Below are positions 942-56,900 of a stretch of DNA of 64,000 nt, piece by piece. The first letter of the stretch is position 1. Each line of letters begins with the position of its first letter. This DNA is from a virus, in the IMG/VR virus record IMGVR_UViG_3300032770_000018, positions 14,137 through 78,136 of that record; one strand, written 5' to 3'. Below the pieces are notes generated by a model. It was given only the letters and a program-made list of their open reading frames with translations, was not told where the DNA came from and did not search any database. The translations under genes and the position numbers were made by a program.

Positions 942-1448
942 CTAAAACGGGATCTTGCTCTTTACCTCAGCCGAGTGATTTCGATGCGGCACCCCTCTTC
1001 GCCGGGCGCGACCCTTACCACCGTCCACGACCCCGATACCAAGTCGTTCACCGAGTCGTCTTCGGGTAGCCGTGATAACATCGCAAAGAGTTTCGAGCGC
1101 ACCCGTTGGGTCCCGTCGCTGCCGGTTTGACACATAATAAGTAACTGCGATTCTAAACTCTGGATGGCCTTCTCCATCCATTCCTGAAACTCCGGGGATG
1201 TAATCAGGAGCGGCCTCTTGAGCGGCCTCCCGTTCGGCAACTTGGTGATCCACCGCTTGGAATTCTTGAAGCTTGGGATGTGGAAGTTCGGCGCCGACGA
1301 TTGGGCCTCTGGTTCCCACTTCTTGCGCATTACCCGCGGAGCCTGGATTCGCTTTAGCTCCAGAACGAGCGGCTCGCCTAAACGACCCGTCGGACTGCTG
1401 AACAAATCCCCGGGCAAGCATTGAGGCTCTGAGTTCATCGGAGGTCAC
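942..1448 (-). CDS. RusA-like protein, frame B (central RRD..L..L.D motif)
   Basis: GTG at 1448 overlaps the upstream stop (GTGA); ends 4 nt before the MTase ATG; FRIAVTYYVSNRQRRDPTGALETLCDVI resembles the RusA core RRDxDNxxKxxxDxL. Confidence 0.55.
   Translation of the reverse strand: MTSDELRASMLARGFVQQSDGSFRRAARSGAKANPGSAGNAQEVGTRGPIVGAELPHPKLQEFQAVDHQVAEREAAQEAAPDYIPGVSGMDGEGHPEFRIAVTYYVSNRQRRDPTGALETLCDVITATRRRLGERLGIGVVDGGKGRARRRGVPHRNHSAEVKSKIPF
962..1438 (-). CDS. RusA-like protein, frame A (N-terminal PSxKN and C-terminal DD motifs), nested in frame B
   Basis: HIPSFKNSKR...LITSPEFQEW and PEDDSV...GEEGCRIEITRL resemble the RusA N- and C-terminal segments. Confidence 0.55.
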   Translation of the reverse strand: MNSEPQCLPGDLFSSPTGRLGEPLVLELKRIQAPRVMRKKWEPEAQSSAPNFHIPSFKNSKRWITKLPNGRPLKRPLLITSPEFQEWMEKAIQSLESQLLIMCQTGSDGTQRVRSKLFAMLSRLPEDDSVNDLVSGSWTVVRVAPGEEGCRIEITRLR

Positions 1449-1942
1449 TCGCATTTCTCCGGCAACGCCTTGAACCCGCCCTCCTTGAGCGCCTGATAGA
1501 AGGTGCGTTCCCCGTCCCACGCGTAGGGCAGGAACACTTCGCGGTACTCGGCCTGCTTCATTTGGATCATGGACATCTGGACCTCGATCCAGTCTTGAAC
1601 AATCTTCCAAGCCGTGCGCTCGGCCTGCTGCGCAAAGTCGGACTTACGCTTTTTCTTATGGGGGCTCCACGCCAAGGATTTCCCGTCCGATGATAGCTGT
1701 TCGCCATTGGCGTAGTTCAGCCAGAGTGCGTCCAGTGCCTTCTCTTTGTCGGCGGGAATGCGAATCGTCATGCGCGGCGCGCCTTGGTCTGGCTGAATGT
1801 GGAAGGTGATGGCCGAAATCTCGCCGTTGGTACCGCGGTACTCCTTGGTGATCCCGCTCACCCCGCACCGAATTAGCACCTGCTCAATGCGGTAGATGGT
1901 CTGGCTTACCGGCACGTTGCTGGTGTAGTTCTTGAGGAACAT
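1445..1942 (-). CDS. Phage hypothetical protein
   Basis: 165-aa ORF in the operon; KNYTS..., AERTAWKIVQDWIEVQ, EVFLPY resemble a recurrent phage family. Confidence 0.75.
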   Translation of the reverse strand: MFLKNYTSNVPVSQTIYRIEQVLIRCGVSGITKEYRGTNGEISAITFHIQPDQGAPRMTIRIPADKEKALDALWLNYANGEQLSSDGKSLAWSPHKKKRKSDFAQQAERTAWKIVQDWIEVQMSMIQMKQAEYREVFLPYAWDGERTFYQALKEGGFKALPEKCE

Positions 1943-9697: not shown

Positions 9698-10780
9698 TTG
9701 AAGACCTCAACGCTCTGGGTGGTTCGCGGCCGGGAGCCCGTGCTTTGGACAATTCCGGTGTTTGTCGAGTGGCACGACAAGACGGCGATCATCCGGCCGG
9801 CGGTGGTGCTCAACGGGATGCAGGGCCACGCGCTGCTGGCGACGGTCAACAAATGGGGAAAGATCGAGGACGGCAACTACATCATTCGCGAGTCGGCGCT
9901 CCGGCAGTGCGCGGAGGAGATCCCGCCGGAGGAAAACGCGGAGATGCACTTTTCCTGGGAGCGCGTCCGGGCGCCCCAGCGCACGCGCTACAACGCACCA
10001 GAGGACCAGGAACGCCGCGAATTCCTGGATGAACTGCACCTTTCGGGCGCCTGGCGGCCGTTCTGCTCCCGGCGCGAGGAGGTCGACTACGTGTTTCACG
10101 CGCTGTGCCGGTTCATGCTGGATTGGCTGGTAAACCAGGAGAAACCGGTGGACCTGCACTTCGCCAAACTGCACAACTGGCCCTGGCGCCAGAACTTCGC
10201 CGACGCGATCTACCGGCGCGAGAAGGCGTACGACCTGCGGCCGAGGGAATTGATGCGCAAGTACGGCCCCCAGGAGGCCTGTGAGATTGAGGTCAACGCC
10301 CGGCTGCGGCACGCAATGCTGACCGGCCCGTTTTTCAGGATGATCGACGGAGACGTGATGGGAAGAGCCCTCTTTATCGAACCAACGCGGGCCTGGCACT
10401 CGCTGATTAAACGGATTGAACGGACCCGGTTCGAGGTGCTAAAGGAACAGGCGTATGCGGACCAGTTTATCCTCTCAGCCTCCCGGCAATGGCCCAGAGT
10501 GGCAAGATTCCTGGCTTCCTGGCTGGCGTCTAGCCTTCAATCATCGCCGATCCTTCTGGAAAGCGCTTCGAGTGGCTATCACCGGTTCGTTTCGAGGGCT
10601 CTCCTTCGGTCTGGCGATAAGGCGCTCATTAAACGCCTCTTTGTCACTATGCGCCTTGCTGGTTTTAAGAGCCCGGACTCGCGCAGATCCAAAAAGACCG
10701 TCGTACGCGCAAAGGCTCGAGCGATGCCGCCAGTGCCCCATGTTCAACCCGGAACTCCAGACCTGCGGAACGGCGCGTGA
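9698..10780 (+). CDS. Hypothetical protein
   Basis: 360-aa ORF (TTG start), strong GC3 bias in the 5' two-thirds. Confidence 0.7.
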   Translation: MKTSTLWVVRGREPVLWTIPVFVEWHDKTAIIRPAVVLNGMQGHALLATVNKWGKIEDGNYIIRESALRQCAEEIPPEENAEMHFSWERVRAPQRTRYNAPEDQERREFLDELHLSGAWRPFCSRREEVDYVFHALCRFMLDWLVNQEKPVDLHFAKLHNWPWRQNFADAIYRREKAYDLRPRELMRKYGPQEACEIEVNARLRHAMLTGPFFRMIDGDVMGRALFIEPTRAWHSLIKRIERTRFEVLKEQAYADQFILSASRQWPRVARFLASWLASSLQSSPILLESASSGYHRFVSRALLRSGDKALIKRLFVTMRLAGFKSPDSRRSKKTVVRAKARAMPPVPHVQPGTPDLRNGA

Positions 10781-10940
10781 GACCTTCTTTAGCCCCAGTG
10801 CCAGGCAGGTGCTACCGCTCGGCTGCTGGTGCTATATGCCGATCAAGGCGGCTCTGCGGTGCAACTGCTGGTTGTATGACGTGAGCGCTGGTCAGGCGGG
10901 CTGGCCGCCGGAACTGAACGACTACCCACATGAGTTCTGA
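10455..10940 (+). CDS. Cys-rich putative metal-binding protein overlapping the upstream gene (start uncertain)
   Basis: RLERCRQC...TCG...GCWCYMPIKA..RCNCW. Confidence 0.65.
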   Translation: MRTSLSSQPPGNGPEWQDSWLPGWRLAFNHRRSFWKALRVAITGSFRGLSFGLAIRRSLNASLSLCALLVLRARTRADPKRPSYAQRLERCRQCPMFNPELQTCGTARETFFSPSARQVLPLGCWCYMPIKAALRCNCWLYDVSAGQAGWPPELNDYPHEF

Positions 10941-11472
10941 AATTGTAAAAGTCGCCAACGGACATCAGGTCCAGGTCGAGGTTGACCTGGAAGAGCCGGC
11001 AATGAGCGATGATCTGCTGGTCGAGACCCTCAAACGCTGCGGCTGCGCCACCTTCGGACCAACGAGGATAAAGGACCTGGCCAGAATCGGCGTCCATCTG
11101 CGGGGCGTTGGGGTGACGAAGATCCAGCGTGGCGCCGTGATGGTGGATCTCGGGAAAGTGGATGAGGTGATCGACGTGGTCCGTGGGATGTTGGGCGCCA
11201 GGGTGGAAAAGTCGGGGAAGGGGACAATCCGCGACCTGGCGGTGCTGACATCCGCTTTTGGGATGCTGATGAAGACCAAAACGGATGTCCAACGATTGGC
11301 CCTTGAGGTCGAGCAGGCGGCGTCGCCGGGCAAGACCATCGAGGAACCGCCCGGGCCGGCCCAGAACTTCGCGCCGGGCAAGCGAATATCCCCCCGCGGC
11401 GGCGGCAACCAGACCTTGGTGCTGGCCCATAACGCCAACGTTTACCCAGACGGCAAGCCAGGGAAGCCTTAG
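10930..11472 (+). CDS. Hypothetical protein
   Basis: 180-aa ORF with typical codon usage. Confidence 0.7.
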   Translation: MSSEIVKVANGHQVQVEVDLEEPAMSDDLLVETLKRCGCATFGPTRIKDLARIGVHLRGVGVTKIQRGAVMVDLGKVDEVIDVVRGMLGARVEKSGKGTIRDLAVLTSAFGMLMKTKTDVQRLALEVEQAASPGKTIEEPPGPAQNFAPGKRISPRGGGNQTLVLAHNANVYPDGKPGKP

Positions 11473-11515
11473 AAAACCGTTGCAGGCAAAAAAGAGGTGT
11501 GCGTAATGTGCGCCC

Positions 11516-11749
11516 ATGAATGGCGATGGATACGCACCAAATTACACGGTTCCAAACTTCAGCCACCCAGAGCCCAGTAACGTTGGCGTCGTTAGCGCCG
11601 GCAGCGGCCTTGAGCAGGGCGCGTACGGAGGGATCGCTCCGACCGACACGCCAAGCGGCCCGACTGAGCGGGTGGACACCGACACCGGCAAGGTCTGGTA
11701 CTTCGTTGACGGCGAATGGGTCTTCAGCGGCATCACTCTCAGCCTATGA
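11516..11749 (+). CDS. Small hypothetical protein (possible virion accessory)
   Basis: DTDTGKVWYFVDGEW resembles DDDTGTVWIFENGGW in 37605..38492; ATGA-coupled to the next gene. Confidence 0.6.
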   Translation: MNGDGYAPNYTVPNFSHPEPSNVGVVSAGSGLEQGAYGGIAPTDTPSGPTERVDTDTGKVWYFVDGEWVFSGITLSL

Positions 11750-13428
11750 AAAAACTACTCTGCACGCTTCTGGCGTCGGCCTCGCTCTGCGTGTTTGGCT
11801 CTGGCCTTCCAACATTCACCGGAATTGTGAAGGGAGACGGCTCGGGCCTAACGAATCTCAATCCTTTGTCGCTGCCACAGAGCCTGCCAGTGGGCAATAC
11901 CAATGCGATTATCGTCACCGGCCTGGGGGCCAACTTTGTGACATGGCTTAACGGGGTCAACGGCCCGGCAACCAACCTGACGGCTGCCAACGGCACGTAC
12001 TACGTGAGCAACAGCCTGGGCTTTGCCTATCTGCCAGGAACCACCTTTGCGATTGACCTGACTGTGTTTGTGCTGTCGAACGCGGTGTTCGCGGAGGACC
12101 TGAACAACGTGACGGTGCTGGCTACGGTGGCTTTGCCGGCTGCCAACCCGGCTCAGCCAGGCAGCGAGGTTGGGAGCATGACTCAGGGGACCGCGGACGG
12201 CAATGGCGCGTCCTACCCGGGATGCTCGATCAGTTACCGGAGCAACAGCGCGAACTTTTTCCCGGCCGCAACAAGTCAGGAGTTTTTCCAGTACCTTCGC
12301 GACGCGCTCAAACCGATGGCGAGTGCGCTGCTCTCCTCAAATCTTTTCAGCGCCACCAGCGGAACGCTCAAAGGTTACAGTTTGCTGAGTGGAGGCTATC
12401 CATCAGTCGGCACGTACACCTTTGTTGGCGACACCTACACCGCCGTCCCCGGTTGCTTAGACGCGATGAGCGTAGCGTCTTTGTCAAATCAGGTGAGCCG
12501 CTACATGGGGCTGGCCACGAATGGTTTTCCTTTTTTGTACGATTCGCTCCTCGCTGATTCGTCCCTGAGTGGGTACCCGGGGAGTCCACCGCTCACGAAC
12601 CTGATGTGCGCAGGTTTCCTGGGTTACGTGCAGATCGTGTACGACCTGTGGCAAGCGTCTGGTAAGGCGCCGTGGGTGTGGGGCGCCTTTGGTGGGAATG
12701 TGACGAACTTGCTCAGCACGACCAACGTCATCAACCACTTAACCTTTTCCTACAAGCAGGCGCAGCATCCGCTGGATGACGACGCGACGATGGACGCGTT
12801 CTATGACGGCCCGGATTATTTCTGCCTGGGCAGCGTGTTCCGGTGGGTGGCGTTGCAGCAAGCGGCGGAGATGGCTGACAGCGGCTACCATCCACTGGAC
12901 GCAACCGCGTTTCGGAACGAGTCGGGCCTGCTCAAATCGAACTTGGTAGCGATTCTCTGGGACAATACGGCTGGGCTGTTCAAGGCGGGGACAAATGCCT
13001 CGACACATGCTCACTGGCACAATATCCCCGCTAACCTGATGGCGGCGCGACTGGGGATCGGTTACGGGACCAACCAGGCGGCGATACTGTCCAACACGGT
13101 GGCTTTTTACGGCAAGGGCTCGTGGTCTGACGCTTGGGCGCAGGTGTATCACTATCCCACGAATGAAGTGACGCCGTACACGGGCGCAATCTCTGCCCCG
13201 TGGTCTTATCCTTACCTCTACTGGGCGGATGAGTACGGCGGCTGCCTGGAGTTGACGCGTCCCGACCTCGCTCAAGCCTACTGGCTGCAATGGGCAACGC
13301 ATTTCCTGACGATTGGGGACACTGACCCGATTGTTGGGGGTGGTGTGCGCAGTCCGAACTTTTTCAAGCCTTACGCGCACATCCGGTGGCGTGCGGGCGA
13401 TGCGGCGGCATTTAATTGCCCAAAATGA
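11746..13428 (+). CDS. Signal-peptide protein with tail-fibre motif and putative (alpha/alpha)-barrel glycosidase-like C-terminal domain
   Basis: MKKLLCTLLASASLCVFG; GDGSGLTNL tail-fibre motif; LKSNLVAILWDNTAGLF...ANLMAARLG resembles six-hairpin glycosidases. Confidence 0.6.
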   Translation: MKKLLCTLLASASLCVFGSGLPTFTGIVKGDGSGLTNLNPLSLPQSLPVGNTNAIIVTGLGANFVTWLNGVNGPATNLTAANGTYYVSNSLGFAYLPGTTFAIDLTVFVLSNAVFAEDLNNVTVLATVALPAANPAQPGSEVGSMTQGTADGNGASYPGCSISYRSNSANFFPAATSQEFFQYLRDALKPMASALLSSNLFSATSGTLKGYSLLSGGYPSVGTYTFVGDTYTAVPGCLDAMSVASLSNQVSRYMGLATNGFPFLYDSLLADSSLSGYPGSPPLTNLMCAGFLGYVQIVYDLWQASGKAPWVWGAFGGNVTNLLSTTNVINHLTFSYKQAQHPLDDDATMDAFYDGPDYFCLGSVFRWVALQQAAEMADSGYHPLDATAFRNESGLLKSNLVAILWDNTAGLFKAGTNASTHAHWHNIPANLMAARLGIGYGTNQAAILSNTVAFYGKGSWSDAWAQVYHYPTNEVTPYTGAISAPWSYPYLYWADEYGGCLELTRPDLAQAYWLQWATHFLTIGDTDPIVGGGVRSPNFFKPYAHIRWRAGDAAAFNCPK

Positions 13429-14018: not shown

Positions 14019-14257
14019 CTGCCATCGAGAGAAACCAACCGCTAGACGTGCTGGACATTGAAATCATCCGGCACCGGGGCTATCAGGATGCACCTGACAA
14101 GGAACTTGCTGTGGTCCTAGGAATAACACGCCCCGCAATGGAGGCGAGGTTGAAAAAGCTTCGACGCATTTTCGGGCGCTGCGACCACCTGTTCATGCAC
14201 CAGCTTGCCACCGCTTTTGGTCTGGCCCCTGTAATGCCCGTGATTTATGCCTCCTAA
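14015..14257 (+). CDS. Small HTH (LuxR/sigma region 4-like) protein
   Basis: PDKELAVVLGITRPAMEARLKKLR. Confidence 0.6.
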   Translation: MTAIERNQPLDVLDIEIIRHRGYQDAPDKELAVVLGITRPAMEARLKKLRRIFGRCDHLFMHQLATAFGLAPVMPVIYAS

Positions 14258-44924: not shown

Positions 44925-47900
44925 ATGGCTTTTCTGACACCAGAGGAGATCGACGCGATAGGCGAAACGCCATCCGGCGCGGCACCACGTTCAATGGAGC
45001 GCGTGCTGACGCCCGACCAGATTGACCAAATCGGCCAGGGATCAGCACTCAGAAGCCGTCAAGAGATCGACACCCGCTCGTTTCAGACGCCCAGCATCGC
45101 GTCGCACCAAGCCACTTTCTTTCCCCGACCTGGCCCGACTGCGCCCTCGGGAGTGCCTGTAGAGCCAATTACGGCGCCCGACATTGCTGGCGGCGCGGCG
45201 GAGGCGGTGCAGGAATACCCCAAGAACGTCGGTAAGATCCTGTCCCTCGGGTACGCGGGCGCGGCTGACGTTACCTCGCAGGCCATGGGGCTGCCAAAGG
45301 CCCAGGCGGATGCGACCGGCCAGACCGAGCCTGATAGCTGGGCTAACATCAAGGCTGTTCTCAACGAGGAAGACCTGCCGATGGACCAGATAATCAGGCA
45401 GACCCCAGGGCTGCCCGGCATGTTGGCCAAGGCTGGCAAAATGTGGTTGGACCTCATCCCGAGAATCTATCTGATGCGCGGATTTGGCGCGGCTGGCATG
45501 GGGCCGGCAACGGCTGGGGCGCTCGCATTCGGCACGAAACCAACCGGCAGCGGCATTGACCCGGTTGGCGCGGCGCTGGGCGCGCTGATGCCCGGAGTCC
45601 AGGAAGTTGGCCGAACTCTTGGGGGTAGCCTGGCCGATTCGCTGATGCGGCGCGGGCTCATCAACGCGGGCGACAAGTTCACACGCAACCTCGTTGAGGA
45701 AGTTGGGGGTGTTGGCGCAATCCAAACTCTTAACGAAGCGCTCAATTCGCCGCAGCTTTACCAGCTTTACCAGCAGGACCCCCATCAGTTCTGGAGCCAG
45801 ATCGGGGCGGACACTCTTGGAAGCGCGGCGTTCATGCTGGTTGGCGCCCGGGATTGGGCGACGGGGCCCGGACCGTGGAGCAGCGCCTTTATGCGGGCGG
45901 TCGAGAAGACCTACACGCCGGAAGACCTCAAGGACATTTACCTGAGAGTCAACCGCGGGGAAGCCACCCAGGAAGAGCAGCAGATTGTCCGGTTCATCAA
46001 CACGAAGGTCAGCAGCCCGGGCGAGGCAATTCGCGGGGGTGCGACCATCCGGACGGAGACCCCGATCTTCACCAGCCCATTCTGGCAAAAGTTTTTCGGC
46101 CTGGCAGCCAAGGACCCTGAGATCCGGCTGACAGGGGCGCCGGGACAGCAACCGCCGGCCGCGCCGGCAGCAACAGCGGCACCGCAGCCAAGGCCCGGCG
46201 GACGGCCGCTCTTGCTGGGAACAGGAGAGGCAGATGCCACTACTCAAGAGCAGCAGCCAGGAAGCGTTCCACCGCAACGTGGCGGAACTATACCGCAGCA
46301 ACCAGGACAAGCCCCCGGAGGAACGGCGGTCGCGCCAGCAGATACTGGCAATCGCCTACCGGGTGCAGCGGGGAGCCCACCGGGAGGAATCCCAGCGGGC
46401 ACGCCGCCGACCACGCCAACGCCCGTCCCGCCTGCGCCAAAGCCAGCGGCGGGGGGCAAGCCTCCGGCGGTAGCGCCCGACTGGAAAACCATCAAGCCCG
46501 ACGACATTTCGGCAATGCCGGCGGAGACCTTTGGGCCGTGGTACGCGTCGCTCGTGGTAAACCGGAAGCCTTTGCAGGATCGGCTGGCCAAAGAGGAAAC
46601 GGCGGACACTCTCGCCCAGCATCTCGCGGCGGCCACCACTGGTGCGGGGCTAGTCCGGCGCATGGCCGAGGCGGAAACCGATCCCGCCAAGCGGCAGGAC
46701 TTGATGAACCGCTACCTCGCGGCCACGCAGAAGGTTCAACTGTTCCACGAGGCCCTTGGAATAAAAAATGGAATAATTGCCAAGGGACCTGCCAAGCCAT
46801 CTCTGCCAATAAACCCAGCGACCATTGGGCTACCCCAGTGGCGGCAACAGGACCACAACGTCACTCGCAGCGGCAAGGACAGCTACTACGTTCCAACCAC
46901 CGGAGACCGCACACTATGGCCGGGCGTCACCAGCAAGCGCCGGGTGGTGGACATGCAGTATTTCCTGGAGAAGCTGAAGCGCGGCGAGATCGGCCAGGAA
47001 GAATACAACCGACAGATTCAAGGCATCCGGGACAACCCGATGTATGGAAAGCCCGAGCCTGTGCCGCCACCCGCGGCTCCGAAATGGAAGGACATCGGAC
47101 CCAACAGCAACGGCGACACCGTCTTTGAGGATGACAACGGTGTCCGATCGATTCTGCGAGGCAGCGTCAGGGTTACCGAACCGGTGCGGATGATACCAAC
47201 CCGAGAAGGCGTCCAGACCGCGACCGGAGACCGGACGGGCACGGAGTTTGAGACCGCAACGGAGGCCAGGAAGCGCACGTCCCCCGAAGCCGGAAACGCT
47301 CTCCGCGCCCTCGTCAACAGCGCGGAGAACAACCAGCAAAAGGCTGCGGAGGTTAAGCGGCTGGCCGATAAAGAGGGCGTCACGGTCAAGCAGATGCAGG
47401 AGCGCATCGAGGCCGAGGTGGTGAAGATGGCCAACGAGACTGCGCGACGGCCAGACCTCTCGCCAAAAGAAAAGTTCCAGGAACTGATCGCCCTCTACAA
47501 CCGCCAGCCGGTTTTCTCCGCGCGGACCAGCACCAGCGTCGAGAATCAAGCCTACTCGACGCCCGCGCCAATCGCTTTCGCTACCGGCTACATGGCGGAC
47601 GTCGGACCATCCTCCAGCCAGTACGACGGCACGGGCGGCAATGGGATGCTCCTCATCGGCGGGGACATCGCGCATTCATGGGCCAATGAACTCGACCCCG
47701 CGCGGCAGGCGGCGCTCAAGGCGCTGGGTGTCGGAATCGTCACCGGCAACGACGCGACGACCTTCCGTCCGAACGTGAAATACGATGTAGTGCGGCTCAA
47801 TCCGCCCTTCGGCTCGATCGGCAACACGCTCTACGACGGGTTTGGCATCAGCAAGCTCGAACACCTGATCGCCCTCAAATCCCTCGAGGCGATGAAGAAC

Positions 47901-50900
47901 GACGGTACCGCCGCGGTAATCCTCGGGGCAACCATGCAGCCGCAGCAGAAGGTGGTCAAAGGCGCACAGTGGGTTTTCGAGAATTACCTCTATGGCCACT
48001 ATCACGTTGCCGCAAACTTTGAAGTCTCTGGCGATCTCTACGCCAAGCAGGGAACGAAGTGGCCGATTCGGGTGATCATCATTGCCGGGCGCCGGGCGAC
48101 TCCGCTGACGGGCGAGCTGGCGCCGGCGAGCGTGCAACGCCTGGGCATGTTCGACGAACTATGGACCCAGGCCGAAAGGACTCACGATGACGTTGTTAGA
48201 GCAAAAGAAGCCCTGGTGTCCGGTCGAGAGCCCGGACTACCTGTGCCTGCTGGGGCCAAACCAGGCCCCGCCAAAGGACAAACTCCGGTTCCTCTTCCTC
48301 CAACAGGACCTCCTGGAACTCCTGGTAAAGGAGGCAAGCCACAACGAGGTGGAGGAGGCAAACCGACGCCTGCTGGAAAACCTACAGGAGGACTTCCTGG
48401 TCAACCTCCCGTGCAAGCTCCTGGCGGACCCGGCGGGACCCCACCAACTGCTGTTCAACCCGGCGCCGGAGGGGACAAAACTGTCGGAGTGGAAGGAGGA
48501 ACTCCCGGAAAAACTGGCGCTCCCGGAAATGCCCCAGGCGCAGGCGGCGGCGCTGGCAAAGAGCCTCAGCCTGGAAAGCTTCCTGGCAAGGGTCCTGTAA
48601 GGGGCGGCCGAAAGGCTGACGACCTCTCCGGGATGGCCGACGATGAGTTGGATAACCTACTCGACGCGGCGGTCCAGGAGAATCAGCCGGCTCCGGCTCA
48701 GGCACCGAAAGCGGCGCCGGCGCCGAAGGCATCAACCTCGGGCCAACGCGGCGGCGCGCTTCCCGGCGGCAAGGCCCAGGCGCCGAAGCCTGCGCCAGCG
48801 CCGAAGCTTTCGGACGCAGCCAAAGACGCGGCCAAGGCGTTCGACGAAGGGATGAAAGGCCTTAACGACCTCTTCGGAGGCGGAGGGCTGGTTGGTAGTG
48901 GGCCAGCGTTCAACGAAGACACCTACCAGAAGGCCAAGGGCCATTTCAAACAGGCATACGACGCGTTTGTGAGCATGGGTCGCACACTCAAGGAGTTCGT
49001 GGCCGAGTGTCTGCGCCGCTGGGGCAATAACGTGCGGGACTACATCCGCCGGTTCATCAAGGACATGCAGGCCGAACAGGAGGCCAAGACGGAGATCGAA
49101 CCGGGGAAGGCCAACGCCTTGCAGGATGTTTACGAGCCGCGCTCGGAGGCGACGCCGCTGGGAACGCTCACTCCGAAGAACATCTCGGTCGGGGAGCACG
49201 CGGCGCTCGATGCCCTCAAAGCCCGGGTTGGTTCGCTCGACAACTACGTGGCGGACAAGCTCAATATGCAGCCGGACGAGGTGAAACAGGTCCTGGCCGG
49301 CGAGCAGGTTGACGGCGTGGCACAGGGGATTAACCAGGTCGAGACCGGAGGGGCGGTCATTATCGGAGACCAAACGGGTATCGGTAAAGGGCGCCAGGGA
49401 GCCGGGATGCTGCGATACGGCATCGTTAATGGAGCGGTCGCCGTGTTCATGACCAAGGACCCGAAGCTCTTCTCAGACATGCACGGGGACCTTGCGGACA
49501 TCCACACGCAGATCCGTCCATTCATCATGGGCAGTCCGGCAAAGGCCAGCATCGTCGGCAGGGACGGCCAGGTGATCCACCGTGCTCCCGGGCTTGAGGT
49601 CCAGCGGCGCGAAATGGCACGCATTCTCCAGGGCGGCTGGGCCAACAGTGGCTACAACTGCATCTTTCTCACCTACTCGCAGGTCAACGATCGGAACGAA
49701 CGGCAGCAGTTCCTCGAGCGGTTGGCGGCTACCAATCCCACGCTGATCGTGATGGATGAGGCTCACGAGGCGGCTGGCGACTCGGGAAGCTCGATGCAGG
49801 CGGCATTCATCACCGGCGGTCAGGTCCAGCGCGGGTCGGGGGCGCAGCGGAAGACCATCACGGTACCCGGACTACTCAACCAGCAGGGAACCCGAACGGC
49901 GCCGGGCGGGGTGGTTTACATGAGCGCCACTTTCGCCAAACGGCCGGAGAACATGGCGTGCTATTTCCGCACGGCCCTCAGCCGCTCGGCCCAGAACTTC
50001 AATCAGATCGTCCAGGCAATGAAACGCGGCGGGGTCGCGCTGCAGCAGGCGGTGAGTGAGGCGCTGGCCAAGGCCGGCCAGTACATGCGGCGCGAGCGCG
50101 ACTTCTCCGGCGTGCGCTACGACATGAAAACCATCAAGGTCGCCGGCGAGGGGGCTTTGAAAGGTGAGGTTGACGAGGTTACCGAGGTACTGAGCCAGAT
50201 CGTGGATTTCAGCCACAAAATCCGCGACCGCGTGCAAGCCCAGGGCGGAGGCGCGAGCAGCACCGCCATGACAGCCGCCCAACAGGACATGACGGATTTC
50301 GCGGCCATCGTTCACAACCAGATTTCCCAGTTGCTGCTTGCCGCCAAGGCGGACGCGGTCGTTCAGGAAGCGATCGCGGCCAAAGCGAAGGGCGAGAAAC
50401 CAGTCATCGCCCTGATGAACACGATGGAGACGTTCCTGGATAACTACACGACCGACCACGACATCCAGCCCGGGCACGCCATTAAGCTCGGCTGGCAGGA
50501 GTTGCTGAAGTACGCGCTGACTCGCACGCTTCGGGTGACGGAAAAACTACCCAACGGCGACAAGAACATCTACTCGGTTGACCCGGAGGAATTCGGCCTG
50601 GGCGACGCCTACCGCGCGGTCGAAGCGGCGGCCGACGCCATCTCCAGCAAGTTCCCAGTCTCGCCCATTGACTACATCATCCAGCGGCTAAAGGCGGCTG
50701 GCGTCTCGATGGTCGAGCTTACCGGCCGGCAGAGCGGCATCGAATATACCGACTTTGAGAAAAACGAGGGCATTTACCGGACGTTCAAAAAGGCGAACAA
50801 GAACCAGGTGGTTAACGGGTTCAACGGCGGGAAGTACGACGGGATGCTCCTTAATGCCAGCGGTAGCACCGGCCTGAGCGCCCACGCGAGCACCACCTTC

Positions 50901-53900
50901 GATGATAAGCGCCCCCGCCACATGATGATCGTGCAGCCGGCGCTGGACATCAATGTCTTCATCCAGACGCTGGGCCGCATCCTGCGCACTGGGATGGTGA
51001 AGCTGGGACTCGGGGAGGATGGCCAGCCATACGGCGCGCGCTACAGCCATTTGGTTTTGCCGCTACAGGCCGAGTTGCGGCCGGCGGCTATGGCAGCAAA
51101 GAAGATGAAGAGCCTCAATGCCAACACGACGGCAGAGGCCGACGCGGCGATCAAGATCGAGGCGGAGGACATCTTCAACCGCTATGGCGACCGCATCTGC
51201 GCAGAGTTCCTGGACCAGCACCCCGACATTCAGCGCCTGCTCGAACTGCCGATTGATGTGAACGACGACGGGACGGTTGAGGTTCCGCGCGACGTGGCTC
51301 GCAAGATGACCGGCCGGATGGCGCTCATGCCCGATGAGGACCAACGCAAAGCCTACGAGGAGCTCATGCCGGCCTACCGGACGCTCATCGAGCAGTTGAA
51401 GGCGACGGGCGAGTACGACCTGGAGATTGTCGTGCACGACGACTGGGATGGTATCCAGCGCGACGATCAGGAGCTACAGGCCGGGACCGACGACAGCAAT
51501 ATCTTCACCGCCGGAGTGAGAATGCAGCGGTGGGAGGTGCGCGATATGCGCCATGTCCCCACCGGACAGGAGATGGAATCCGAATTCAAGCGCGTGTTGG
51601 GCAGCAAGGCGAAGGTCCTGGAGACCTGGAGAGAGGTCCGGGTGAAGGGCGACAAGCGGATCGAAGATGCCCAGGCGACGCTCGCGCGTCAGCAGGCCGA
51701 ATGGGATGCCGCCGACAAGCGCAAGGACCAGATGAGCGAGGCCGAGGCGCAGGGCCACATGGCACAGGGCGTCCACCTCGCGGGGATGCGCGGCATCGTT
51801 GACAGCATGGCCCATCGCTGGGACCACGCGAAGGGTTTGGTGGACAGCCTGCTTGAGCGCGCGGGCCAGGTTGTGGAGCTGACCAACCCGGAGACGGGCG
51901 ACGCTTTCAACGGGATGCTGGTGGACGTGAAATACCCGACCGGCAAGCGCTATACGATGGCGGCTTTTCGGTTCAAGTTTCTGCTCCATTCCCCCGGCGG
52001 GGTGGCCTACATCACCGGCGCTCAGTTCGGGGGCGGCCTCTGGAACATCGATCAGAGTGATAAGGAAGTGGCGGACCTGGGGCCCGGCGACAAGAACGCG
52101 CGTTACCAGCGGTGGTTCATCACCGGCAACCCCATCGGCGGGTACGTCGCCACTGGGGGCCGCGGCAAAATGGTGCGCTTCAAATCTCAGGATGAGCGGA
52201 CGATTACTGGCCTGATGATGCCCACGAACTGGGGGCCGCAGAATTTGGCCAATGACCCGAGGCTGGACCTCATCAGCGGGGCCGCCGTCAGACACTTTCT
52301 CAACAACTACGGGATGGTTGGGCGCAACGGCGTGCCACTCGAATGCGGGAACGTCTGCCGGTTGACGCGCCAATCTTGGGGCTCGCGCAGCTACACCATC
52401 AGCGTGCCGGCCGCCCGGAGCACCGGCTCTCCGATCTATCTCGACCGGGAACTGCGGCGGACCACCGGCGACTTCACCAAGACCGGCAGCCGGATGACCG
52501 CCAACGTGGACGATGACGACATCAACAAGGTGGCCGACCGGATCATGGCGATCACCAAAGCGCGGTTCCGGCCGGTCGGGGATACTGAGAGGCTAATTCC
52601 GCAAGTGTCGGAGTCCAATCGGCGTGGCCGTCCAAGGCAGGGCGCGCTGGCGTTGCGGCAGGCCGGTGGGGTTGATGTCTCAATGGAGGGCAAGACCTTC
52701 ATCCTGTCTCGACCGGGCGTCCCAATCCAGGGGCTTCCAGCTTTCCACGGGACACCGCACGACGTTGACCGATTCTCGCTGGATAAGATTGGCACCGGGG
52801 AAGGTGCGCAGGTTTACGGCTGGGGGCTTTACTTCGCAGAGCGTGCCGAAGTGGCTCACAAATACAGAAAAGCTCTGACTTTGCAAAATTGGCGATCTCT
52901 TGAGGATTTAGCGTCTCTTTTGGTTACTGAGACTGGGGGTGATAAGCAAGCGGCAAAAGACCTGGCCAATACCCGCCTGAATCAGTCCCATATCAAAGCG
53001 TTTCAGGATGTTATCCCGCTAATAGATTCCGCGAAACAGCGCGGCAGCCTCTACAGTGTTGACCTCGACGTTGAGCCGGAGCAGTTGCTCAATTGGGATA
53101 AGCCATACATCGAACAATCCCCGGAGGTTAGGCGGCGGCTTGAAGAATCCGAATTAGGTCCTTGGATCAGGGCTAACCGCCCCAACATCGGAAACATCTA
53201 CGAGCGTTTATCGGAGCTTTTTAAGTCCCCCGCCAAGAACCTGCCCGATTGGGTAATTGAGTCTGAGATGTTCCGGGGTGAGAGCATGGTGGGAAGCGAC
53301 AAAAAGGCATCAGAATTTCTCAACTCGTTGGGCATCAAAGGCATTCGTTACCTTGACCAGGGAAGCAGGAGCCTGCCGCCGGTTCAGGTTGTCAAAATGG
53401 GAGACGGAAAATTCGGGGTTCTTTGGGGAAGCGATCCTGTGCCTGTTAATGGAAAATTCTACGAGACTGAGGAGCAGGCGCAGAAGGTCGCGGACGATGT
53501 CGCAATTAAGCCGACCTACAATTACGTCATCTTCGACGAGAACTCGATTAAGATCACCCACAAGAACGGCGAGCCAGTCACCGCCGACGAGATGCGGCAG
53601 GCGTCCCTCAAGAGCGCGGCAGACAATAGCCAGGAAGCCGCGCGCGCTGGCGTCCGGGAGGCTATGGGCCCATCAGACCTTCGGCGGATGATTAACGCGC
53701 CGGACGCCGGCTTGCCCGACGAGGCGGTCAATCTGCTCAACGAGTTTCTCGACAGCCCGCTCGCCGATTACTTGGAAGGCGTGAGGCTCCGGATTGCCGA
53801 CACCCTGGCCGACGGCTGGCAGGGCAGCTACTTCGAGAAGCTGGCGGAACTGGCGAGGACGGCTGACCCGCTAACCGGCATTCACGAGTTCCTGCACCGC

Positions 53901-56900
53901 ATATGGGAGATCCTCCCGCCAGACATCCAGAAGGAATTCGAGCGCCTGCGCGTCGAGGGACTCCGCAAGATGCTCGAGGAAGCGGTGGCGGCCGGACAGA
54001 TGGAACGGGCCAAAGCCATTCAGGACCTGATCGCCCGGCCAACCGCCGGCGCCGAGGAATTCCTGGCGCGCGGCTACCCGTCGATCCTGCTCAAGGACCT
54101 CTATCCGTATTCCAGCGCGGAGGAGAATTTCACCCACAGCGGCAGCGCGCGATTCAAGGAACGCGTGGGCTCTATGGTCGAGGGCTTCTGGTCGAGGGTT
54201 AAGCAGATCATCAGCGACTTCATCGCTGCTCTGAAGAAGGCGCTTAGGCTCAAACAGAATCAGGCACAGTGGCTGGACAACGTTCTACGTGGAAACTTCG
54301 ACCCCGCCGAGGCCGAGGATGTTTCCCGCGTTGAGCGCCAGGGCGCGCTGGGGGCCACGCCTCCCGAAGAATCGGAGCGTGCGGCGGCGATCAAGCGCGC
54401 TGAGGTGGAAGAGGAGCAGGAACAACCCGGAGTGCCGACCCAGGTCTTTGGCACGGTGGACCACGTTCGGGCACGCGAGCAGATAACCCCAAGCTCAATG
54501 GCCGACAGCATCGCCCACGCCGAATCTGTCTTTAAGCAGGCGGGTGTCCCATTCATCCGGGAGACCAACGGGCTATTGACCATCCAGCAAACCGGGTTCG
54601 AGATGAACGCTGAGGGCCGCAAGCTGCTGGACCTGCTGCGCCAGGAGATTGCGACTAAGAACCAACCGGGTAAGGCTGGTGACCTGCTGGCCGACCTGCT
54701 GAACACCATCGTCTATAACTTTCACCAGGGCACGATGTCGGAGTTCGAGCGGCCACTGAGGGAGGAGCTTTACGAGCTGGCTCAGTCTGACCGCAGCCAG
54801 CGTGGGCTCCAGCTTGGCGCTCTGGCGCTCTTCCGGCCCGACCTCGACTTCGTGGCCAAGAACGTGGATGTCGTGCTTCACCGCGTTTACTCGGACGCCT
54901 TCGGAGGGACAGAGATTGCCAGCGTGCTTAAGCGCGTGATGGAGAACTTCCGGCAGTATTTCACCGACGATGAGATCCGAGCGGCGCTGGCGAGCGCACC
55001 CGGGCTGGTTGACCTCGTGGACAAGATCATCGCGCTCAACCGTCGGGATGAGGGCGGCCGGGTTTACCGGCGGGTGCAGGCGATGCTCAAGCCCAAGAAC
55101 AAAAAGAAACTGAGCGCCCTCGAAGGCGACGCCAGGGTCCAAGAGGCGGTTGACCAGATCATCGAGAATGCGCGGCTGCTGGGTATTGAGCCGCAGAAGT
55201 CGCCTAACCCAAAGCTTTCGCCGTTGCACCGGCTGCTCCTGATGGTCACTCCAGGCAATGCCGATAAAATTGACGACCTCATCAGCCGAGCGGTCGCCGA
55301 GGGCGAGCGTAACGCCGGCATCAAGTGGGCGCTACGCCAGACCAAGACGCCGGATGAGCGCGCGGAGGCCGAGGCGCGGTTTGCCGCCGGGGAGGAACCG
55401 ACCGAGGACATGGTCGAGCAAGGGTTGGACCTCCCGGAGTTCGCCCACTGGCGGGCGCTTCGCGACGATTTGCTGGGCTACGAGCCGACGACCCTGAAGC
55501 TGGTTCAGGACCTGATCCGCGGCGACTTCAAGGGCACGCGCTTTGGCAAGCCGGAGAACCGACCAGCCGACACACGGCTGGACCTTAACAAGCTGGCGAC
55601 GCAGCCGGAGGAGGAGGTCCGCAGGGTTCTCGACGCCTACCTGGATAACATCGAGGCCAACATGGACGTCCGGAAGGCCGACGAGGATACCCAACAACGG
55701 GTGCGCGAGATGGTCGAGCGGGAGGTTGCCCACCAACTAGAGCAGGCCCGCGAGCGGTTCCGAAGCCCGATGTTCGCCCCGCCGAAGGACCCGCGCACCG
55801 CCCTAACGCCACAGCAGCAGATGGCCAAGCTGGTCAACGCCGGCCTATTCCGCGACCCGCGGGCTAACCTTGCAGAGATGGTCCAGCGCGTGGCCGCCAA
55901 ATCGCGCGTCGCACGGCTTACACCTGGGCTTCCCGATTTGGTCAAGCAGGTGTTCCAGACGCCGTTCTATCGGCAGTCTGACCTAGCCAAGCGCTTTGCC
56001 GACGACCTGGTCAACCGGCTGGGCGTCGCGCCTGAACAGGCGCAGAAGGCCGCTGAGGTGTTCGCGCAGGCATTCGACTCGCGGTTCACCCGGGCCAAAG
56101 AGCTTGCCCAGAAGCAGGTGGTGGCCTCCTTCACGCCGCTGGACAGGTCGGTCATTAAACCCGGCCGCCCGATCTGGCAGAAGATCGAGCGGGCGGTCAA
56201 CGCCGGGGTGTTCGACGCCGGCGAAGTCCTCAGGGAGATCGCGCGATCCCGCGGGTGGTCCATCCCGACCGACGCCCAGATCGCCAAGATGAAGGCGCTT
56301 TCCGAGCGCGAGCAGCGGTTACGCGACCTCACGACGGCTGAGCAGGCGGCGGCCGGTGACCGTCCAGAGGACATCGCCAAAGCCAAAGCCGAAAAGGCGG
56401 CAGCCACCCTCGAGGAGCGGGCGGCCCTTCACAAGCAGATGGGTGTCATGTGGTCGCGGATGACCCGGCCTATCTCCTGGGCCCACTGGTGGTCAACGCG
56501 CCGCAACTTCGCAGCCGCGCTCAACGAGCTTGAGACAGGCAATCTCCTGCTCAAGGTTGGTTTCCCGTTCCGGCTGGGCATCCACATCCTCACCCAGGGC
56601 GCGATGCACACGCCGACCCGAGCGATGGCCGCGGCGGTAGAACGCTGGCTGGCGGACCGCTCGGCGGCGCGCGAGACCAACCTTTGGCGTGACCTGCACC
56701 AGGCGGTCTCCGACGCCTACAAGCAGCGGCTGGCCGCATGGCGCCCGGCGCTGGTGTCGGCCAGGGCGGCGCTCGCGGGTCGTGGCGAAGCCCGCAACGT
56801 GGACAGGCTGATGACCGGCATCCAAGCGCTCGAACGGGCGTCCAGCCTGGCCGACGAGCTATCGGCACAGGGCAAATTCGCCCAAGCGTTTGTCGTCCGG

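Follow-up and report, generated by a model that had tools for sequence, protein, structure and literature searches.

A stretch of 64,000 nucleotides (positions 14,137 to 78,136) of the IMG/VR virus record IMGVR_UViG_3300032770_000018, called the window below, contains on its minus strand two reading frames, A and B, that lie over one another and each carry parts resembling a RusA-type Holliday junction resolvase. The locus raises the question of whether both frames are translated, and whether the two sets of parts meet in a single enzyme as two polypeptides, as one recoded chain, or not at all. A sequence-only reading of the same DNA had offered two co-expressed half-proteins, a double (-1 then +1) recoding event, and an ancestral rusA with compensating frameshifts, without choosing among them.

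Both minus-strand frames were confirmed to be open and fully overlapping, each with its own start, and their layout in the window is as follows.

962 to 1438, minus strand: ORF A, ATG at 1438-1436, stop TAA at 964-962, 158 aa.
942 to 1454, minus strand: ORF B, ATG at 1454-1452, stop TAG at 944-942, 170 aa.
1457 to 1460, minus strand: GGAG, likely ribosome-binding site, 8 nt before GTG 1448 and 2 nt before ATG 1454.

Frame B is free of stops over 942-1610 (minus strand) and is offset one base behind frame A. An alternative start, GTG at 1448-1446, would give a B product of 168 aa; this codon shares the sequence GTGA with the TGA stop of the upstream gene, and the overlap suggests translational coupling into the A/B pair. 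The start codons of A and B are 10-16 nt apart in different frames, just past the upstream stop. The GGAG at 1457-1460 likely serves as a ribosome-binding site, and purine-rich motifs precede the B start in several relatives. The upstream ORF itself (1445-1942, 165 aa) has no Pfam or PHROG match.

The motifs IPSFKNSK...EFQEW and EDDS...GCRIEI were found in frame A, as had been described, and the central segment missing from A is present in frame B as RRDPTGALETLCD. Codon-position GC of ORF A is 0.53/0.46/0.73, as usual for a coding frame. Over the 158 codons of A, frame B has no stops against 3.7 expected (synonymous-codon shuffles, P about 0.01), and it has none in any of the ten close homologous loci. 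Across all genes of the window the same alternative frame contains 2.9 stops per 100 codons (observed/expected 0.88), so the openness of frame B is specific to this locus and not genome-wide. On one side of the gene is a replication-recombination module that encodes AAA_24 and AAA_23 ATPases, DnaB, a PDDEXK nuclease and an HTH protein resembling a replication initiator; on the other are methyltransferases, and phage resolvases usually occupy such a site. The match of the downstream methyltransferase (2-937) to the N6_N4_Mtase model is confined to the last 60 positions of the latter, and SPPY occurs three times in the translation. Elsewhere in the window, positions 44925-58775 form a single plus-strand ORF of 4,616 aa.

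Judged by its homologues, frame A is a real gene family: 70 database proteins align over its full length at 50-70% identity, and none of them has a Pfam domain. In viral, metagenome and genome collections 59 related loci were found; after removal of duplicates and fragments, 35 of these and the window made a comparison set of 36, in 18 clusters at <55% identity. Samples of wetland, soil, peat and freshwater supplied the loci, together with two MAGs (Verrucomicrobiota, Methylomirabilota). A search for sequencing runs containing the DNA of the window listed one DNA run, a wetland metagenome that is probably its source, and no RNA run. The split layout is present in 36/36 distinct phage or prophage loci, and the prediction that both frames would stay open in related phages was thus borne out in the relatives examined. 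A B-profile database search, in which the best 8,000 candidates by shared words were scored, found at least 12 B-type proteins recorded by gene callers and, among the same 8,000 candidates, no single-frame, unsplit relative. The gene was absent from 50,697 GenBank phage records searched by tblastn with A and with a compact relative, PHROGs searches with each frame gave no match, and a search of the ESM Atlas for look-alikes of A gave no usable match. In one further relative (L056:2426-2824) both frames are disrupted, with the PSFKNSK region in the B-type frame and stops in B; decay of the copy or a fault of assembly is the probable cause.

Codon-position diversity was computed independently for a close group (n=10) and a distant group (n=28), with the same pattern in both. 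The segments distinguished by this analysis are given below.

1142 to 1291, minus strand: A residues 50-99 (PSFKNSK loop, hairpin, alpha1); frame-A selection; the same bases encode an unconstrained, predicted-disordered linker in B.
1068 to 1157, minus strand: B centre, residues 100-129, beta2 and alpha2; matches RusA residues about 52-85, catalytic Asp motif included.
1073 to 1132, minus strand: stretch of B-only selection by codon-position diversity, ~20 codons, A residues about 103-122; a variable linker in A.
965 to 1069, minus strand: A residues 124-158 (LP-x-DDS with D127 and D128, beta3, beta4); frame-A selection; the same bases encode the basic tail of B.

Over nearly the whole gene the third positions of A codons vary most, and P55, K58, N59 and K61 of A are invariant. 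At A residues 103-122 the most variable positions are instead the second positions of A (0.5-0.8), which are the third positions of B, with A first positions at about 0.0-0.3. On this codon-position evidence, purifying selection over the stretch is on frame B only. The B centre is conserved in all 36 loci, even where A falls to 30-44% identity, with the consensus F/Y-R-V-T-V-T-L-x-V-S-D-x-R-x-R-D-x-D-G-A-x-S-T-L-x-D-C-L-x-x-A; R114, D115, G118, T122 and D125 are invariant or nearly so, and there are hardly any indels in the 36 sequences, so that the centre has a fixed length. An RNA structure or a DNA site as the cause of this conservation was excluded by the strict three-base period of variation at the synonymous positions of B.

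B has its own ATG or GTG in 36/36 loci, 4-76 nt upstream of the start of A in 35/36; in the exception (L007) the B start, as placed, is 20 nt downstream of the start of A (d = -20). A has its own start also, usually ATG. Between the start of A and the centre, frame B shows no B-frame selection and contains no stops in 36/36 loci, against 52.7 expected. Through the 30-codon B centre (1068-1157) frame A likewise contains no stops in 36/36, against 67.3 expected from general codon usage and 13.4 from the family's own codon pool, which is already biased by stop avoidance. With one representative for each of the 18 clusters, P was about 1e-13 for B before the centre and about 1e-20 for A through the centre. 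Frame B after the centre served as a control; its 39 stops, where 46.2 were expected, show that the null model is calibrated. By these measures of open length and selection, frames A and B are very probably both translated.

The relationship of the two products to RusA is remote. The Pfam RusA model (PF05866, cut-off 22.8 bits) matched neither frame A nor frame B of the window nor any of the 36 B-type proteins. The source record is a complete 78-kb virus with terminal repeats, and a six-frame search (E<=10) found no ordinary RusA in any frame of it. For profile-profile comparison, in-silico A-B-A joins were scripted from the 36 loci, and the RusA alignment combined E. coli RusA and three of its close database relatives with 21 canonical RusA genes from Verrucomicrobiota genomes. 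By hhalign the A-B-A chimera aligned to this diverse RusA profile with a probability of 91.9% (P 7e-7) over 90 columns, RusA residues 11-114; B alone reached 86.9% over 34 columns and A alone 1.1%. The margin of the chimera over B alone was slight (score 43.7 vs 39.6), and a collinear RusA alignment over the domain was obtained only when the frames were joined A-B-A. In it the region of A residues 124-158 aligned to RusA residues about 88-114, collinear with the B centre. When the B profile was run against 177,635 PDB sequences, E. coli RusA (1Q8R) ranked third (residues 56-85, E 0.7), the matched residues being the beta2 strand and the R-R-R-D-L-D-N helix; the A profile gave only noise against the PDB sequences.

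A RusA HMM of our own gave 6.2 bits for the chimera of the window sequences, 1.7 for B and -0.9 for A, and HMMER-level means were 8.4 bits for the chimera, 7.2 for B alone and 1.9 for A alone, none significant on its own. The chimera comparison that the sequence-only reading had proposed therefore came out in favour of the chimera, which outscores either single frame against RusA profiles and is aligned over the whole domain, and the reading of the motifs as RusA holds at the level of remote homology. Since the HMMER ordering is the same but not significant, the locus is labelled RusA-like by remote homology and not as a member of the Pfam family.

The predicted structures were examined for each product separately. 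The AF2 model of A has a pLDDT of 74 overall and is weakest (48-63) at residues 101-130, where B is conserved. A fold search with this A-only model, independent of Foldseek, returned RusA 1Q8R as the single outstanding match among 48,161 chains, at a modest Z of 4.3 with the next match at Z 2.2; the superposition (rmsd 3.4 A) covers 82 of 118 residues and spans the whole chain. Foldseek with the A model against the PDB gave nothing below E=2. The AF2 model of B has a confident N-terminal part (residues 1-30, pLDDT 87-94), a poorly predicted stretch (31-100, pLDDT 48-62) and a helix at 116-138 (pLDDT 79-90). Two further features lie at the ends of B.

1365 to 1454, minus strand: B N-terminal mini-domain, residues 1-30, predicted helix then beta-hairpin (AF2 pLDDT 87-94).
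942 to 950, minus strand: B C-terminal Pro-Phe and stop, downstream of the stop of A; conserved in the close clade, L003 and L022.

The N-terminal motif of B (D-E-L..M-L-A-K-G-F-V...G-W) is conserved in the close clade, and relatives have other N-terminal motifs. The codon-position signal there is weakly B-like, and part of the motif may reflect instead the ribosome-binding site and ATG of A. At the other end, the first two bases of the terminal Pro codon are invariant and the third varies, so B appears to be translated to its end. The C-terminal ending is [I/V/L/P]-P-F in the clade of the window, L003 and L022, and resembles the C-terminal tip of bacterial SSB (..I-P-F), a docking site for repair proteins.

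The acidic residues were compared with the catalytic ones of E. coli RusA (D70, D72 and D91). The equivalent of D70 is D115 of B and that of D91 is D128 of A, both invariant. The equivalent of D72 is D in 27/36 loci and T or S in 9/36, the window among the nine. Along the B helix this position covaries without exception with another: D at +2 occurs with S/T at +6 (27 loci), and T/S at +2 with E/D at +6 (9 loci). The T/S(+2)-E/D(+6) switch (B residues 115-121, window 1090-1112) arose in at least two clades. The window belongs to this group, with R-R-D-P-T-G-A-L-E-T; in its clade the second catalytic Asp is replaced by Thr, and an acid is found one helical turn later. The covariation looks like a relocated catalytic carboxylate, and it fits a catalytic role of the B centre.

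The reading that we consider fairly likely, from the complementary, non-redundant and collinear fold parts in the two frames, is that the products of A and B work together as one RusA-like enzyme. The locus would then hold two almost fully overlapping genes on one mRNA, both started by ordinary initiation, with ribosomes starting at B (GTG 1448 or ATG 1454) or at A (ATG 1438). A would supply beta1 (about 24-29), the PSFKNSK loop (55-61), the hairpin and alpha1 (82-100), then the variable linker (103-122) and LP-x-DDS-beta3-beta4 (124-156). B would supply a small domain at its N-terminus (1-30) and, after a linker predicted to be disordered (31-95), beta2-alpha2 (100-135) and a basic tail with PF at its end. 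The strand and helix of B would take the place of what A lacks and so form one RusA-like catalytic core, to which B would contribute the carboxylates of D115, the acid at +2 or +6, and D125, and A those of D127/D128. Because it lacks the central strand, the helix and two acidic residues, A would be unable to cut DNA alone. The A+B unit is proposed to pair up like the RusA dimer and to resolve Holliday junctions at the end of the phage replication-recombination module. A point against this reading is that a fold made from two chains with a long unconstrained linker in each is unusual, and we can name only one precedent.

Of the options left side by side by the sequence-only reading, two co-expressed proteins are favoured by the separate starts, by openness outside the regions under selection and by interleaved constraints within six codons (below). 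They would not be simple half-proteins, since each ORF covers almost all of the locus and the elements of the fold come by turns from one and the other.

It is unlikely, but the best placed of the alternatives, that both proteins are made and do not complement each other, A being a degenerate or regulatory RusA-like protein and B having a separate function, with a centre that merely resembles RusA or descends from it. The confident N-terminal domain of B and its clade-conserved C-terminal PF do suggest roles other than supplying a missing part, 82 residues of the A-only model can already be superposed on RusA, and the similarity of the B centre to RusA is significant at the profile-profile level only. 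Separate functions do not account well for exactly complementary, collinear parts of one fold in the two frames, for a centre of fixed length or for an acidic-residue covariation that fits an active site.

Whether the parts could instead be joined in a single chain by recoding depends on the junctions between the frames, and above all on one further segment.

1142 to 1157, minus strand: doubly constrained segment, end of alpha1 in A (..S-Q-L) and start of beta2 in B (F/Y-R-V/I-T) on the same bases, both frames.

A codon 94 ends in T in 36/36 loci, whichever residue it encodes (S, L, R, A, G, V, N); this T is also the first base of the B codon for F/Y100. The next B residue, R101, is kept in 31/36 through synonymous codons that alter the residue of A (E, V, G, A, others). 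Two to three codons downstream the constraint is that of A, where Q98 (34/36) and L99 (35/36) fix four-fold-degenerate sites of the B codons for T/S/A and V/I. The B-constrained F/Y100 and R101 thus lie upstream of the A-constrained Q98 and L99, all within 16 nt, and because a B constraint precedes an A constraint within six codons the pattern cannot be explained by one ribosome path.

A single RusA-like chain made by programmed frameshifting, from A to B (-1) before beta2 and from B to A (+1) after alpha2, is accordingly judged improbable. Such a chain would explain why the A-B-A chimera gives the full collinear order of RusA elements without redundancy and why constraint alternates B-A-B-A along the locus, and a T-TTA or T-TTC at the first junction could allow a one-tRNA slip in many members. 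Against it, the nucleotide alignments contain no conserved slippery heptamer, stop, rare-codon site or other shift signal at either junction, in line with the earlier remark that no obvious slippery heptamer was to be seen; at the first junction the sequence is AGT ATC or AAT ATC in the members with Tyr, and the second has no conserved stop or motif. Frameshifting has no need for the start of B, for the openness of B before the centre or for that of A through the centre, all found in 36/36 loci (joint P <1e-12), and one reading path could not give B-constrained codons upstream of A-constrained ones; from the fused chain, the end of alpha1 and the alpha1-beta2 loop would be missing. If translation started in B, a third shift would be needed. 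The double recoding event of the sequence-only reading is disfavoured on these same grounds of separate starts, openness of both frames and interleaved constraints. Slightly less probable still is that two or three frame changes within about 500 nt (B to A, A to B, B to A) yield one chain, with full-length A and B as by-products or regulators; if true, multiple recoding would make this the first conserved gene of that kind. Transcriptional slippage was set aside, neither junction having a homopolymer run.

A dead rusA with two compensating frameshifts (the third option of the sequence-only reading, rejected because the centre of B is under strong purifying selection in its own frame across 18 diverged clusters), an artefact of sequencing or a shadow ORF left open by chance in GC-rich DNA is scarcely credible: long alternative frames are common in GC-rich genes and Pfam has no match here, but the layout recurs in 36 independent contigs from many samples, frame B is under purifying selection at its centre, and stop avoidance goes far beyond the window-wide rate.

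The proposed two-polypeptide resolvase can be set against four kinds of known system. It is like RusA (PF05866; E. coli DLP12 RusA, 1Q8R) in the order of elements (beta1, P-S-x-N loop, alpha1, beta2, R-R-D-x-D-N/G helix, DD-beta3-beta4), in the collinearity of the chimera at profile level, in having 1Q8R as the top structural match of the A model and in the place of the gene in a phage replication-recombination module. RusA is one chain forming a homodimer, whereas here the elements are split over two ORFs in 36/36 loci; in addition the equivalent of K76 is S, T or E, A has a 20-residue insertion and a hairpin, and B has an extra N-terminal domain and a tail.

The precedent that we can name is M.EcoHK31I, in which the gene of the large subunit contains, in a different frame, the coding sequence of the small one. 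In this C5-cytosine methyltransferase motifs I-VIII and X are on the large polypeptide and motif IX is on the small one (PMC3404938). As in the locus described here, the second ORF is in another frame, has its own start and bears a motif that the first frame lacks; M.EcoHK31I differs in enzyme family, and here the ORFs are nearly co-extensive, with alternating secondary-structure elements of a 120-residue fold. The same phage has, upstream of the window, a C5-cytosine methyltransferase (L087:1760-2782; G000:C1 about 10759-11781) that matches Pfam positions 3-180/324 only, with a 299-codon ORF (L087:1801-2700) nested in its +1 frame on the same strand, an M.EcoHK31I-like layout.

In programmed frameshift genes (dnaX, prfB, the phage tail chaperone G/GT) two frames of one locus likewise feed a functional product. 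Those genes have a conserved shift site and a second frame that is open only downstream of it, unlike the present locus, where each frame has its own start and is open throughout, a conserved shift site is lacking and one segment is doubly constrained. Overprinted viral gene pairs, for example tombusvirus p19/p22 (reviewed in PMC8227390), share the complete overlap, and in them too the ordered regions of one protein lie over disordered regions of its partner. The classic overprinted case is of unrelated proteins, one of them new, whereas here the two products have complementary parts of one old fold. By analogy, the locus may be described as a further case of a known but very rare architecture, closest to that of M.EcoHK31I. 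No report of a RusA-type or any other recombination nuclease split between frames was found in the literature.

If A and B assemble, this would be to our knowledge the second enzyme type known with such an architecture, after M.EcoHK31I, and the first among recombination nucleases: a small nuclease fold in which secondary-structure elements alternate between two polypeptides made from the same DNA. The split would then be of long standing in a broad set of uncultured phages from soil, wetland and freshwater. Three questions could be studied in the family: the origin of overlapping genes from an existing fold as opposed to de novo, the way in which two starts with a spacing of 4-76 nt fix the ratio of the subunits, and the extent to which fragments of a protein can complement one another. 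A gene split in this way escapes standard gene callers and Pfam; one frame is called a hypothetical protein, and the phages seem to be without a resolvase. The frame-specific substitution test could reveal other split enzymes.
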